From a candidate division FCPU426 bacterium (lineage in GTDB: Bacteria > Oederibacteriota > JAAXVQ01 > JAUVAV01): a stretch of DNA of 64,000 nucleotides. How positions within the stretch are numbered: the first letter of the stretch is position 1; each line of letters starts with the position of its first letter. A program made the position numbers. This document shows positions 26,001 through 32,000 of this stretch, in pieces. The stretch covers positions 1 to 64,000 of the forward strand of contig JBFLYH010000001.1 in the NCBI GenBank assembly GCA_040756875.1. Direction: 5' to 3'.

Positions 26001-29000
26001 TTCGGCCGGAACGGCTGAAAGAGTTTCTGGGGCACACCCGGCTCGAGGTCATGACCGGCATGACCATCGGCCTGGTGTGGTCCCTGGTTTTTTATTGATG
26101 CCATCCGCTGGTGAAGCATGAGCGATCCATTGCTGCCTACGATTCATTCCCCCGCTGACCTGAAAAAACTGCCGCTGGCGAGCCTCAAGGCCCTGGCCCA
26201 GGAAGTGCGACAGGAGATCATCCAGACCGTGTCCCAAACCGGAGGGCACCTGGCCTCCTCCCTGGGCGCGGTGGAACTGACCCTGGCCCTCCACCGGGCA
26301 TACAACACACCCGAGGATCTGATCGTGTGGGATGTGGGGCACCAAACGTACGCCCACAAGCTCCTGACCGGCCGCCGGGAGCGGTTTGCCACCCTGCGCC
26401 AGGAGGGCGGCATTTCAGGTTTCCCCAAGCGCGAGGAGAGCCCGTACGACGCTTTCAACACCGGGCACTCCTCGACCTCGATTTCAGCCGCCCTGGGCAT
26501 GGCCCGGGCCCGCGACCTGGCCGAAAAAAAGCACAAGGTCGTGGCCGTGATCGGCGACGGTTCGATCTCCAACGGGCTGGCTTTCGAAGCGCTCAACGAC
26601 GCGGGCCACCAAAAAACCGACCTGCTGGTCATCCTTAACGACAACCGCATGTCCATCAGCAGCCCGGTCGGGGGGCTTTCCAATTACCTCAACCAAATTC
26701 TGACCGGCCGCATGTACAACCGTTTGAAAGGGCAGGTGGAAGGGCTGGTGGCGGCGATCCCGGCCGTGGGCAAAAGCGCGCTCAAGCTGACGTATTACCT
26801 CGAGGAGATCGCCAAGGGCCTGCTCGTGCCCGGCGTGTTGTTCGAGGAGCTGGGCTTCAGGTATTTTGGGCCGGTGGACGGCCACGACCTGGAGACCCTG
26901 CTGGCTACCCTGGAACGCGTCCGGTCGCTGTCCGGCCCGATCTTCCTGCACGTGCAAACCCAGAAGGGCAAAGGCTTCGAATTCGCCGAACAAGATCCGG
27001 TTGCGTTTCACGGCACGCCGCAATTCGACGCCGGCACGGGGAAGAGCAAGGTCTGCTCTGTGCCTACGTATTCCCAGGCGTTTTCGCAAACCTTGCTGCA
27101 CCTGGCCCGTCAGCATCCCTCGTTGGTGGCCATCGTGGCCGCCATGACGTCCGGCACAGCGCTGGAGGAGTTCGCGCAGACTTTTCCCAAGCGTTTTTTC
27201 GACGTGGGCATCGCCGAGGGCCATGCCGTGACCCTGGCCGCGGGCCTGGCGGCCGCGGGGTTCCGTCCCGTGGTGGCCATTTATTCGACTTTCCTGCAGC
27301 GCGCCTACGACCAGGTGCTGCACGACGTCTGCCTGCAGAACCTGCCGGTGATTTTCGCCCTGGACCGGGCGGGCGTGGTGGGCGAGGACGGCCCGACGCA
27401 TCACGGACTTTATGACCTGGCCTATCTCCGGCACCTGCCGAATCTGGCGGTTTTCGCGCCGGCCGACGAAAAAGATCTGGTGGCCATGCTCAAGGCGGCG
27501 GTGATGCATCCCGGGCCCGTGGCCATCCGCTACCCGCGCGGCAGCGTGGCCAGCGGCTGCATCGACCTGGATGAGCCTCAGGCAAAAATCGGCCAGGCCC
27601 GCGTGGTCAGGACCGGCACCGATGTGGCGCTCCTGGGCCTCGGCAACATGCTCGCCCCGGCCCTGGCTGCGGCCGAAAAACTGGCCCGCCGGGGGGTACA
27701 GGCTCTGGTCATGAATCCCGGCAGCGTGAAGCCGCTCGATAGCGCGGCGTTGCGCCGCGTGGCCGGCAGCGTCCGGGCGCTGGTAACCATCGAGGACCAC
27801 GTGGTCTGCGGCGGATTCGGCTCCGCGGTGCTGGAATGGCTGCAGGCCGAAGGAATGGCCCGCCTGCCCGTGCGTTGCCTGGGATTTCCGGACGAGATCA
27901 TCGGCCAGGCCACCCGCGACCAGCTGTTCTCGCGCTACGGCCTGACCGCGGATCATATCGCGGATGCGGCCTGGCGGCTGCTCCAGCCCGCGGCCAAAGC
28001 CCGGCGCGCCAAGAAAAGCGCGGCATCCGGCGGCCGGCGGGGCAAGCGTTCCTGATGCGCACTGCGAAAAAACTCCGCCTCGACCAGTTGCTGGTGGAAC
28101 GGGGGTTGTTCGCCAGCCGCACGCAGGCGCACGCCGCGGTCCTGGCGGGCGAGATTTTTTCGGGCGACCAGCTGCTGACCAAACCCGGCCATTTGGTGGA
28201 TCTCCACCTGCCGCTGTCCCGCCGGAGCCGGCGCGCGCGTTTCGTGGGCCGGGGCGGCTACAAGCTCGAAGGGGCGTTGCAGGACTTTCAACTCGACGTC
28301 CACGGCTGGAACTGCCTGGATGTCGGGGCGTCCACCGGCGGATTCACAGACTGCCTGCTGCAGCACGGCGCCGGGCACGTGTGGTGCGTGGATGTGGGCA
28401 AGGGCCAGCTGGATATTTCCCTGCGCACGGATCCGAGGGTGACTTTTCAGGAAGGAGTCAATGCCCGCCATCTGAAGCCCGAGGATTTTCCTGAAACCTT
28501 CGACCTGGCGGTCATCGACGTGGCGTTCATTTCCCTGACCAAGATTCTGCCTGCGACCGCGCGGACCGTGAAAGTCCGGGCGGGAAAGGTACTGGCCCTC
28601 ATCAAGCCGCAGTTTGAGGTCGGCCCGGCGGCCATCGGCAAGGGCGGAATTGTCAAGGACAAGCCGGCGCGCGACCGCGCCATCCAGCACGTGATCGAAA
28701 GCCTGGATGCCTGCGGACTGCGTAAACTCGGCCTCCGGCCCAGCGTCATCACAGGCGCGGATGGAAATCAGGAATTTTTTCTGCTGGCGGAGCGGACCTC
28801 ATGATGCTCGAATTGTCGGTGCGCAACATTTCCCTGATTCCGGCCCTGACCCTGGAGCCTGGAAAAGGTCTGGTCGTGCTGACCGGGGAAACCGGCGCGG
28901 GAAAATCCATCCTGCTCGGCGCCTTGTCCCTGCTCCTGGGCGAACGGGCTTCCAGCGACGTCATCCGCGCGGGCAGCGAGACTGCGACCGTGGAAGCCCT

Positions 29001-32000
29001 GTTCGCAGTCGAAGGCCTGCCACAGGTGGCGGAGATCCTCGAAGCCCAGGGCCTGCCGCCCTGCGAGGATCAGACCCTCATCCTCAAACGCGTGCTGGCG
29101 CGCAACGGTAAAAGCAAGTGCTATGTCAACGGCGGATTCACCACCCTGTCGGTTTTGGAACGGCTGGGCGCGGAACTGGTGGACCTCCATGGTCAGCACG
29201 AGCACCAATCCCTGCTGGAACGCAGCCGTCAGCGCGACCTGCTGGACGCCTGGGCGGGCCTAATGGAATTGCGCCGCGAACTCGGCACGGCCTATGCGGC
29301 GCTCAAGGCCAGCCGGGAAGCCCGGGAACGCCTGGCCCTGGACGAGGCGGAGCGGACCCGGCGGCTCGACCTGCTGAATTACCAGGTGCAGGAAATCGAC
29401 GCTGCGGCCGTCAAGCCCGGCGAAAACGCGGTTTTGCAGGAGGAGCGGGAGCGCCTGGCCCACGCCGAGCGCCTGCTCGGAACGGTTCACGAGGTTCTGG
29501 ACATTCTGCACCGCCGCGAGGAAAACGCCGCCCGCGACGGTCTGGCGCATTCGGCCAACGCGCTGGCCCAGGTGGCTGCCTATGACCCGCAACTGGGCGC
29601 CCTGGCCGACGAACTGCGCTCCGCCGAAGCCATTGCGGGCGAGGTGGTCAGCCAGCTTTCCAAATTCGCCGATTCGTTCGAGGCGGACCCCGAACGCCTC
29701 AACCAGGTGGAGGAACGCCTGGACTTGCTGCAGAAACTGGGGCGCAAATACGGCCCGGGCGAGGAAGCCATCCTGGCCTACCGCGACCAGGCGGCGCGCG
29801 AGCAAAACCAGCTGGCGCACCGGGACGAGGAACTGGCCCGCCTGGCGGAATCCGAAGCGGGCCTGGCGGCAAACCTCTCGCAACTGGCCCGGCGCTTGTC
29901 CGACCAGCGCCGCGCGGCTTCGGAAAAATACAGCCGGGAAGTGAAACGGGAGCTGGACGGCCTGGGCTTCATCCGGCCGGAATTTATAATCGCGGTCTCC
30001 CTGCGCGAGGATCCGGAAGGCTGGGTGCAATGGGAAGGCAAAACCTACGCCTGCGGCCCGGCGGGCGCGGATGAACTGGAATTCCTGATCGCGCCCAACC
30101 CGGGCGAGGAGCCCAAGCCCGTGGCCAAGATCGCCTCAGGCGGGGAGCTTTCGCGCCTGATGCTGGCCCTGAAAGTGGCGGCCGCGGCCGCGGCCCAGGT
30201 GCCCACCATGATTTTCGACGAAGTGGACGCCGGCATCGGCGGCGCCACGGCCGAGGCTGTGGGGCGCAAATTGGCTGCCCTGGCCAAAAACCGCCAGGTC
30301 GTGGTCATCACCCACCTGCCCCAAATCGCGCGCTTCGCGAACCGCCACTTTTTGGTCGCCAAACGCGTGGAGCAGGGAAGGACCGTTTCCAGCGTCGAGG
30401 CGCTGTCCGGCGAGACGCGGATCCGCGAGGTCGCCCGGCTCATGGCCGGCGAGCAGATCACCGAGACCGCCCTGCAGCATGCCCGGGAGCTGATCGAAAA
30501 GCCTTGAAATTCAATCCCTTTCGCGAAAGAACTACTCGGCAGGCTGTTTCCAACGGGGTTGACAGCCCTGGTTCCGAGTGCTACAGTGAAACGATTTTGC
30601 CGCGTTCTTGCGGCTTTCAGGAGCTATCAGCATGTTTCGCGTAAAAGTAGACCCCAGACGCTGCAAGAGTTGTGAGTTGTGCCTGGCGGTCTGCCCGAAA
30701 AAGATCATGGTCATCACCCACGAGCGGAACGAGCACGGATTTCACGTGGCCGCCTGCCGGGACGAGCGGGAATGCACGGGCTGCCTGGCCTGCGCCCTGG
30801 TTTGCCCGGACGTGGCTATCGAGATTTTCGAGGACAAGGACTAATGAGCGCGCCGATGTTCATGAAAGGGAATGAAGCCATGGCCGAGGCGGCCATCCGG
30901 GCGGACTGCCGGTTTTATTTCGGCTATCCCATCACGCCGCAGAACGAGGTGCCGGCCTACATGTCCCGGCGCATGCCCGAAGCGGGCGGAACGTTTCTGC
31001 AGGCCGAGTCCGAACTGGCGGCCATTAACATGGTCTTCGGCGCGGCGGTCGCCGGCGCCCGGGCCATGACCTCTTCCTCCTCACCGGGCATTTCGCTGAA
31101 GCAGGAGGGCATCTCCTACATGGCCGCTTGCGAGCTGCCGGGCGTGATCGCCAACATCATGCGTGGCGGCCCGGGCCTGGGCAACATCTCGCCCTCGCAG
31201 TCGGATTACTTCCAAGCCACGCGCGGCGGCGGACACGGCGATTACCGCCTGATCGTGCTCGCGCCCCACACGGTCACCGAACTGGCCGAATTGACCATGG
31301 ACGCCTTCGACCTGGCGGATTACTATCGGAATCCGGTCATGATATTAGGAGACGGCCTGCTCGGCCAGATGATGGAAAAAGTTGAGTTTCCGGAACCCGA
31401 AGCGCGCCGGCGCACGGGGCTGCTGCGCGGGCGCCCGCTGCCCCCCAAGGACTGGGCCCTGACCGGCGCCCAAGGCCGGCCGCCGCGCTTGATCCGCTCC
31501 CTGCTCATGCAGCCGGGCGTGCTGGAACAGCACAATTTCCATCTGGCGGAGAAGTACGCGCGCATCGAACGGGACGAGCCCCTGGCTGAGGTGATCGGCT
31601 GTGAGGATGCGGACGTGGTGCTGGCGGGATTCGGCACCAGCGCGCGCGTGGCCAAGCAAGCCAGGGAGATGCTGCGGGCGCGGGGAATCAAGGCCGGGTT
31701 GTTCCGCCCCATCACGCTCTGGCCTTTCCCCTATGCCCAGCTGGCCGCGATCGCCCGGACGACGCGCCGTTTTCTGGTGGTGGAAATGAACCTGGGCCAG
31801 ATGATCGAGGACGTCCAACTGGCCGTGGCCCGCGAACGGAGCCTGAAGGACGCGACCATCGCCCTTTTGCCCCGGCCGGGCGGCGGCGTGCCGGTTCCGG
31901 AGGAAATCGTGGACAAAACCCTGGAGGTGCTGCGGTGAGCCGCCAGCTGTTTGCCCGCACGCCGGGCCTGAAGGATACGGTCACGACCTATTGCTCGGGT

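Follow-up and report, generated by a model that had tools for sequence, protein, structure and literature searches.

Loss of NAD kinase in a class of candidate division FCPU426 bacteria, and a probable alternative route to NADP

The genome analysed here (G000), that of a candidate division FCPU426 bacterium, has no NAD kinase (NadK), and the absence of this enzyme from the genome and from its class is real. NadK is regarded as almost universal and as the one enzyme that supplies NADP de novo, Chlamydia trachomatis being the only named exception (PMC4518329). The NadK-less lineages, which consist of uncultured bacteria, have lost this enzyme yet kept NADP-specific ones, and therefore their NADP probably comes from a pathway that is new for bacteria. 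The reading that we favor, at a probability of roughly two in three, is that a low demand for NADP would be supplied by an activity other than NadK. What we describe is a gap in the metabolism of prototrophic bacteria that lends itself to testing; the mechanism that fills it is not solved here.

Searches for NadK and its empty chromosomal slot

G000 comprises 7 contigs (those cited below are C1 and C2) with 5 N-gaps, so it is not closed; it was compared with a set of 99 genomes of the phylum, 15 of them in its class, with lineages numbered as families f1 to f23 and relatives deposited under Ca. Firestonebacteria. Searches of G000 with two Pfam models, phylum-derived profiles and a 177-sequence profile found no NadK, confirming what the genome-wide survey's note had reported, and no protein with both the N-domain and the C-domain of the family occurs among its six-frame ORFs. 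The best matches to NADK profiles are a YegS-type lipid kinase (C1:199014-200078) and a PFK (C1:156288-157436), each through the N-domain only. Absence from the whole class, likewise claimed earlier, holds: profile searches recover NadK in 0 of the 15 class genomes, vs 50 of 54 genomes of NadK-bearing families.

It is very improbable that a true family member is present in a form too divergent for profiles. The phylum does contain three non-canonical NADK types that come close to escaping the Pfam C-domain model, but these divergent kinases still reach E values of 1e-8 to 1e-20 with NCBIfam models. Unfiltered and loosened six-frame ORF searches of G000 with canonical, NADK2-like, G074-type, G095-type and 177-sequence queries return the lipid kinase and the PFK alone, and a GGDG motif scan gave no further candidate; weak profile matches of NADK size proved to be ORFs in the wrong frame.

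The window, i.e. the 64,000-nucleotide stretch at the start of the contig, contains the place where nadK would be expected, with these features:

25622..26098, + strand, DUF212 membrane protein of the divergent PAP2 family, preceding dxs (PF02681, E 2.2e-43)
26118..28055, + strand, dxs, bounding the ancestral nadK slot on its upstream side (from the ORF list; the order is dxs-nadK-recN in f4/f5)
28055..28804, + strand, tlyA-like RNA methyltransferase, its start overlapping the dxs stop at 28055
28801..28804, + strand, ATGA shared by the tlyA stop and the recN start; this is the nadK slot, empty and with no remnant
28801..30507, + strand, recN, downstream border of the slot (from the ORF list)

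The names of the three genes bordering the overlaps are probable ones; dxs follows the earlier note and its motifs, and recN follows that note. The overlaps at 28055 and 28801-28804 bear out the earlier observation that this gene run leaves no room for nadK, and in all 7 class loci (7/7) tlyA immediately precedes recN. Elsewhere in the phylum canonical nadK adjoins recN in 14 of 17 loci and dxs in 9 of 17, in agreement with the proximity previously noted for relatives. A metagenome scan with a RecN query found no member of the class (best match, 49% identity); as a control, nadK was present in 25 of 55 unrelated metagenome RecN loci whose upstream sequence extended to 1.5 kb or more, and for this reason the empty slot is informative only within the phylum.

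An assembly artefact, with nadK lying in gaps or unbinned contigs, would suit a genome in 7 contigs with 5 N-gaps and a search that gave no match in 4 of 54 genomes of NadK-bearing families, and may account for a single f7 genome that is 90% complete. For the class it is barely credible: the assembly covers the ancestral slot and shows nothing in it, the positive control Icd was recovered in 15/15 class genomes, and nadK is absent from 15/15 genomes here and 24/24 in families f14-f23, with a chance of ~1e-17 at the observed miss rate.

NAD kinases across the phylum

The survey's note had put the absence at 82 of 99 phylum genomes, an extent overstated almost twofold. The NAD kinase C-domain model at E<=0.01 already gives matches in 46/99 genomes, and a profile that includes the divergent forms gives a clear NAD kinase in 51/99 at E<1e-40 (those of f10 being scored by profile alone); one of these 51, in G094, lies on contaminant DNA, a 70% GC sequence in a 47% GC genome. 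Of the 99 genomes, 45 belong to NadK-less lineages, and four more misses fall inside NadK-bearing families. The discrepancy includes f11 and f12, whose 31 genomes had been scored as NadK-less: their kinase has human NADK2 as its best solved relative, and its GGDGT, ND/E and TxxGST motifs and matches to NADK models place it in the NADK family. In all, 31 of the 51 phylum NAD kinases resemble mitochondrial NADK2.

A quick RpoB tree sets f1/f2 beside the NadK-bearing f8 (SH-aLRT 93) and f14-f23 apart (100); the tree indicates that nadK was lost independently at least twice in the phylum. In the literature outside subscription journals, searches brought up no description of such a loss for this phylum.

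Sequence evidence for a probable use of NADP

Sequence fingerprints of cofactor binding suggest that the NadK-less cells contain and use NADP. The Lys-Tyr pair that determines NADP specificity is retained by Icd in 24/24 NadK-less genomes from three clades, as is the downstream Tyr/Arg in all 22 complete NadK-less sequences; the solved structures nearest to it include E. coli NADP-IDH. The Lys-Tyr pair is an NADP landmark according to PMC3590139. NfnB was found in 5/5 NadK-less genomes tried, NfnA carries YRRS in both G000 and G087, and NfnAB and TrxB of G000 read as NADPH-type. Zwf is present in 3 of the 5 NadK-less genomes tried (in neither G000 nor G019), and in the NadK-less G087 both Zwf and Gnd keep the presumed phosphate-binding Arg.

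Other enzymes point the opposite way. In G000 acidic fingerprints of the NADH type are found in FabG and IlvC, where an acidic residue ends strand 2, and in AroE, GltD, GpsA and Hom, mostly also in G087, and the FabG Asp recurs in 17 of 18 NadK-less genomes; motif readings other than those of Icd and IlvC use presumed diagnostic residues. The IlvC loop EVKDSKA resembles DIPSSEN of the NADH-preferring Tp-KARI (PMC5940873, Table 3). Loss of nadK did not bring this shift about, because it is also seen in some NadK-bearing genomes (IlvC in 5/12, FabG in 5/13) and only partial in NadK-less ones (6/18 have an Arg-type IlvC), and we discarded it as a signature of that loss. The survey's note had listed four NADPH-type enzymes; the NfnAB-like enzyme and TrxB stand, whereas IlvC and FabG, with their acidic residue, do not. 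Its core proposal, that NADP arises by an unrecognised route, finds support in Icd, NfnAB, TrxB and the G087 Zwf and Gnd, though not through the evidence it had cited.

The same data bear on whether these are NAD-only cells, which make no NADP and run enzymes with vestigial NADP-type motifs on NAD(H) or ferredoxin. The lack of NadK, the six acidic enzymes and the missing Zwf of G000 and G019 would fit, and in published modelling an NAD-only network is feasible (PMC9168515). Such a cell would have switched or lost every essential NADPH enzyme, but Icd, NfnA, TrxB, FolD, DXR and Asd of G000 all carry NADP-type motifs. The invariant Icd residues, the retention of NfnAB, pointless without NADP, and the occurrence of Zwf likewise speak against it, and we consider it distinctly unlikely.

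Slightly less probable still is that NADP(H) is imported ready-made from prey, host or neighbours. Giant proteins are a trait of host-associated or predatory lineages, and G000 encodes several of 7,000-12,500 residues. Against this, G000 has, by their probable names, the genes for de novo NAD synthesis and broad amino-acid biosynthesis, and all 45 NadK-less genomes, at 1.3-4.7 Mb, would need uptake. A search of G000 for a TLC/Npt transporter gave no match, but its positive control was also silent. Import is assumed for C. trachomatis (PMC3136453; PMC4518329); with genomes of 1.3-4.7 Mb and NAD synthesis genes in G000, it is not the default explanation here.

Candidate enzymes and known systems

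In the reading we prefer, that of a low demand met without NadK, nadK would be ancestral in the phylum, beside recN, and would have been cleanly deleted in G000's class; one or more further classes would have lost it independently. NADP would be reduced by Icd and by NfnAB, a bifurcating transhydrogenase; TrxB, DXR, FolD and Asd appear equipped to use NADP(H), and the NADH-type FabG, IlvC, AroE, GltD, GpsA and Hom would take high-flux reductions off NADPH, lowering demand. For the small supply needed to offset growth dilution only, a phosphotransferase that is not of the NadK family could then convert NAD to NADP (an assumed 200 uM NADP pool per day requires just 2.3 nM/s). Given repeated loss or replacement of nadK and no gene found that is confined to NadK-less genomes, we infer that this step would be a side activity of an enzyme retained phylum-wide. 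We put at slightly better than even the chance that it is a NAD 2'-kinase outside all NAD kinase families known so far, be it the founder of a new one or a housekeeping enzyme, for instance CoaE, that has acquired 2'-activity on NAD; repeated loss would then be possible because the putative 2'-kinase is phylum-wide. For low demand to be met by an enzyme beyond those named below is possible, at somewhat short of an even chance.

The best named lead, itself unlikely, is an altered dephospho-CoA kinase CoaE that may act on the NAD 2'-OH. CoaE (PF01121), a P-loop kinase, phosphorylates the adenosine ribose in a cofactor that contains ADP, and the likeness of this reaction to that of NADK is noted in PMC9168515. 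The G000 protein (C2:280659-281339) has this fold, its structure model being that of an ordinary dephospho-CoA kinase, and the gene is single-copy in 30/30 genomes (18/18 NadK-less, 12/12 NadK-bearing). CoaE normally phosphorylates a 3'-OH, however, and the class version differs in lacking a conserved Pro and in a class-specific 30-residue insert in the acceptor domain (7/7). A Val precedes the catalytic Asp in 16/19 NadK-less vs 1/15 NadK-bearing genomes, and Pro is changed to Ala in 17/19 vs 7/15, with kin not independent in either count; the changes are shared by NadK-bearing f8-f10, are absent in the NadK-less f7 and one f3 genome, and follow a CoaE clade. An archaeal-type dephospho-CoA kinase, which would free CoaE, was found in 0/5.

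No tested candidate has a distribution complementary to that of nadK. Two stand-ins that the survey's note had considered fare poorly. The YegS-type kinase (g00202), a highly improbable source, is in 13/15 class, 3/5 f3 and 3/24 f14-f23 genomes, so it is missing from 2/15 and 21/24 of the two large NadK-less clades; we rejected it as a NAD kinase on this distribution and on its TIGR00147 score over cut-off, membership of atlas YegS clusters and ordinary YegS motifs rather than the NADK C-domain motifs (NE/D, TxxGSTAY). PfkA (C2:665401), less probable again, has close orthologues in the NadK-bearing f4 and f5. The PAP2 protein next to nadD has only a very slight chance: it occurs in 80/99 genomes at E<=1e-8 and its N-terminus looks exported. 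Also set aside were a PfkB group kinase (C1:878256; in 5/5 NadK-bearing genomes), the DUF212 protein upstream of dxs (76/99 phylum genomes, with and without NadK) and a zeta-toxin kinase (best Zeta_toxin match in G000 E 0.003, under cut-off).

A screen of genes shared between G000 and 1.85 of the ~2.3 Mb of G087 gave 928 reciprocal best hits, listed as 493 and 194 short and ~125 long entries, of which 82 were scanned against Pfam and the others named by eye; no unassigned kinase appeared among the listed genes. One 706-residue shared protein without a Pfam match falls with hypothetical and guanylate-cyclase clusters.

Whole classes of biosynthetically competent, NadK-less bacteria with NADP-specific enzymes present a pathway hole that can be closed. 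A second bacterial NAD kinase, if it exists, would bear on cofactor engineering, on NadK as an antibacterial target and on the 4% of bacterial genera without annotated NadK. Were the cells NAD-only instead, they would offer a natural test of a metabolism so far addressed by modelling only (PMC9168515).

Four known systems provide comparisons. NADH-preferring KARIs of anaerobes, of the Thermacetogenium phaeum type, share with IlvC an acidic residue opening the beta2-alphaB loop and the lack of Arg, but the trait here occurs with and without NadK and is not tied to nadK loss. The mitochondrial NADK2 / plant NADK3 clade is matched by the f11/f12 kinases and is absent from G000 and its class. Chlamydia trachomatis, the one known case without NadK according to PMC4518329 and PMC3136453, shares the lack of nadK in its genome but is an intracellular parasite also without NAD synthesis, unlike the larger NadK-less genomes here and G000 with its NAD synthesis genes. 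Finally, NadK is not, as the survey's note had it, the only known NADP-forming enzyme: the plant calmodulin-dependent NADKc (At1g04280; bioRxiv 10.1101/521658) is a NAD 2'-kinase unrelated to NadK, reported among eukaryotes from plants and some algae. G000 has no zeta-toxin domain over cut-off; the zeta-toxin fold of NADKc is a P-loop fold, as in CoaE, and sets a precedent for NADP made in this way.

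Absence of NAD kinase from the genome and from its ancestral slot

The genome-wide survey's note had reported that this genome (3.22 Mb and not closed, with 5 N-gaps across its 7 contigs; its close relatives carry the deposited name Ca. Firestonebacteria) encodes no NAD kinase (NadK), and our searches bear this out. The N-domain model PF01513 gives two partial matches under cut-off, a YegS-type lipid kinase and a phosphofructokinase (PFK), and the sole match of the C-domain model PF20143 (E 0.07) is on an unrelated protein. Unfiltered hmmsearch/phmmer searches, in which canonical (17 sequences), NADK2-like (11), pooled (29) and G074-type queries (the latter named for a panel genome) were run against 41,759 six-frame ORFs, together with a loosened search using a 177-sequence NadK profile (147 representatives plus the phylum's own kinases), returned nothing beyond the same YegS-type kinase and PFK; in G087, a NadK-less comparison genome, the 177-sequence profile found no NadK in the 1.85 Mb searched. 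It is very unlikely that a NadK is present yet undetectably divergent.

The ancestral place of nadK, between dxs and recN, is occupied in the window as follows, under presumed gene names that follow the survey's note:

26118-28055, dxs
28055-28804, tlyA
28801-30507, recN

Overlaps at both joints (dxs/tlyA via TGATG, tlyA/recN via ATGA) leave no space for a nadK gene or remnant, confirming that the slot is empty. That nadK lies near recN or dxs in relatives also holds: canonical nadK adjoins recN in 14 of 17 phylum loci and dxs in 9 of 17. In the class (families f1 and f2) tlyA abuts recN in 7/7 loci, and in families f14-f23 dxs abuts recN in 17/18. The slot is informative only within the phylum, because just 25 of 55 recN loci from unrelated bacteria hold nadK.

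Distribution and loss of nadK in the phylum

Of 99 phylum genomes, 82 had been said to lack NadK, a figure that arose because only strong C-domain matches were counted. At E<=0.01 the C-domain model matches 46/99 genomes; the proteins gained in this way have full length, show the motifs GGDGT, ND/E and TxxGST, match NAD kinase models only, and have human mitochondrial NADK2 as their best solved relative. A profile including these divergent kinases finds 51/99 genomes at E<1e-40, namely 50 of the 54 genomes of f4-f6 and f8-f13, plus G094. The G094 match lies on 70% GC DNA, as against 47% at the recN locus of G094 itself, and is a contaminant; the stretch concerned (L215, G094:C3:1-12000) has tlyA-nadK at a contig end in a 47% GC genome, as in a contaminant or chimeric contig. 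Genome G095 holds a more distant NADK-like protein (L214:1129-2067, E 2.6e-16) with GQDG instead of GGDG, presumably of the type known from SPFH operons. With G094 and G095 counted as without a native canonical enzyme, NadK is missing from 24/24 genomes of f14-f23, 5/5 of f3, 1/1 of f7 and, as had been claimed, the whole class (15/15), which makes 45/99 genomes instead of 82. The f7 absence is weak evidence because rpoB of that single genome (L470, G018:C15) is frameshifted in the assembly. As a control, Icd was found in 15/15 class genomes, and fifteen misses at the observed miss rate of 4/54 would have a chance near 1e-17; an artefact is extremely improbable.

In a quick RpoB tree of 30 genomes, built without an outgroup or f9 and with SH-aLRT as its only support measure, f1/f2 group with NadK-bearing f8 (SH-aLRT 93) and f14-f23 stand apart (100), with no settled placement for f3 and f7; this topology indicates that nadK was lost independently at least twice and perhaps four times. 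Non-canonical NAD kinases occur in three further lineages, f10 (putative), f11/f12 and f13, those of f11-f13 located away from recN. In f11/f12, 31 genomes (L021-L033, e.g. L024:1024-1896) have a bacterial NAD kinase for which human mitochondrial NADK2 is the best solved relative; we take its neighbours to be mostly a MarC-like gene and phosphoglycerate mutase. Where the eukaryotic mito-clade NADK came from is a question on which these kinases bear; one clade, of uncertain provenance, unites human NADK2 with plant NADK3 (PMC6675116).

Cofactor fingerprints and the probable use of NADP

AroE, GltD, GpsA and Hom of this genome have acidic fingerprints that we take to be NADH-type, like that of FabG, in which Asp ends strand 2. 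The IlvC loop, EVKDSKA, is likewise acidic, resembling the NADH-preferring Tp-KARI loop DIPSSEN and differing from LRxxSxS loops (PMC5940873 Table 3). These fingerprints suggested at first a cell that runs on NAD only, which modelling allows (PMC9168515). Acidic IlvC occurs in 12/18 NadK-less vs 5/12 NadK-bearing genomes and acidic FabG in 17/18 vs 5/13; being found in NadK-bearing genomes too, they gave no support to a tie with nadK loss.

Several enzymes argue against an NAD-only cell, which we consider unlikely. Among the best 30 of 88 matching Icd loci, those of NadK-less genomes, which span three clades, keep HGTAPKY throughout (24/24), and YDL/IAR is present in all 22 complete NadK-less sequences; Lys-Tyr is described as a reliable landmark of NADP use (PMC3590139). 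NfnAB is intact in this genome and G087, both with YRRS, NfnB is present in 5/5 further genomes tried, and TrxB keeps HRR in this genome and in G087. We take YRRS and HRR to be NADP-type motifs, so that of the enzymes previously cited as NADPH-type, NfnAB and TrxB stand whereas IlvC and FabG do not. In this genome DXR, FolD and Asd also look NADP-type to us. Zwf, absent from this genome, occurs in 3/5 NadK-less genomes tried, and G087 Zwf and Gnd keep an Arg that presumably binds phosphate.

Two further loci were noted. A prephenate dehydrogenase in the window (15212-16081) has no acidic residue at the place after strand 2 where one is usual (GLARR; GWGRN in G087), presumably an NADP-type or broad fingerprint. 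A fatty-acid/polyketide-like cluster (L051, C1:909981-919072) holds what we take to be an HMG-CoA-synthase-like gene, two enoyl-CoA hydratases, two ketosynthases and NADPH-type reductases.

Candidate sources of NADP

The reading we favor, with a probability of roughly 0.68, is that NADP is still used, with demand lowered and a small supply coming from a non-NadK phosphotransferase. Demand would be lowered by NADH-type reductases, in part older than nadK loss, and the phosphotransferase, kept phylum-wide, would supply enough NADP to offset dilution (2.3 nM/s if a 200 uM pool and a doubling time of one day are assumed); its phylum-wide retention would account for the repeated loss or displacement of nadK. 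Uptake of ready-made NADP(H) is quite unlikely.

Contrary to the survey's note, an enzyme other than NadK is known to form NADP, a plant P-loop kinase of zeta-toxin fold (bioRxiv 10.1101/521658); an effector related to it produces 3'-NADP (PMC5087710). No zeta-type protein was found in this genome. The YegS-type kinase (13/15 class, 3/24 f14-f23 and 7/9 NadK-bearing f8-f10 genomes) was rejected as a stand-in for its ordinary motifs and a distribution not complementary to nadK; DUF212, a PAP2 protein, PfkB kinase and PfkA were rejected as present both with and without NadK. Comparison with about 80% of G087 (928 reciprocal best hits, genes named by eye, on our own calls of 2,344 genes covering 87% of bases) revealed no unassigned kinase.

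CoaE was tested because its fold is of the P-loop type and its substrate is an ADP-containing cofactor, which it phosphorylates on the adenosine ribose; its reaction has been likened to that of NADK (PMC9168515).

C2:280659-281339 (L427:260-940), CoaE

It is single-copy in 30/30 genomes, and an archaeal-type dephospho-CoA kinase substitute is absent from 5/5 genomes searched. In class CoaE (7/7 sequences) the acceptor domain is enlarged by a 30-residue insert, well ordered in a predicted model (pLDDT 94) that has an ordinary dephospho-CoA kinase fold. With G033 left out (no frame parsed), there are differences at two positions of the acceptor site: Val precedes the catalytic Asp in 16/19 NadK-less vs 1/15 NadK-bearing genomes, and a Pro is Ala in 17/19 vs 7/15. 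These changes track a CoaE clade that takes in NadK-bearing f8/f9, and CoaE of NadK-less f7 is canonical; the available portion of PMC13629385 gives no acceptor-site detail. From sequence, CoaE is a candidate NAD 2'-kinase, a lead and no finding.

Other loci were recorded alongside. A proA-nadD-PAP2-NHL-repeat cluster is kept in f14-f23 (L218:13248-17355 in G087; L395-L418), with nadD adjacent in 17/22 loci; its PAP2 protein looks exported and may have a role in pyridine nucleotide salvage. Besides a glutamine-dependent NadE at C1:1138824, this genome has a second ORF of this kind outside the window (C3:340098-341192), which is NadE-like and extended at its N-terminus by a long acidic stretch. 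Also outside the window lie tandem genes with a Ppx/GppA gene (C2:46763-49735), presumably thymidylate-kinase-like in a polyphosphate-type cluster, and giant ORFs of about 8,800-12,500 residues (C1:375462-412940, C1:760805-787111, C1:1055290-1085256, C2:60456-97598).

Full-text literature, with most subscription journals and supplements outside its scope, yielded no account of this phylum having lost NadK, and the accessible part of a Goldbacteria account (PMC7031533) does not treat NADP. It is real that prototrophic bacteria have repeatedly lost this near-universal enzyme, to a smaller extent than claimed, and they appear still to need its product. In PMC4518329 NADK is described as the sole de novo enzyme and is found in 96% of bacterial genus representatives, with only C. 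trachomatis named as lacking it; PMC3136453 also gives Chlamydia as without NADK.
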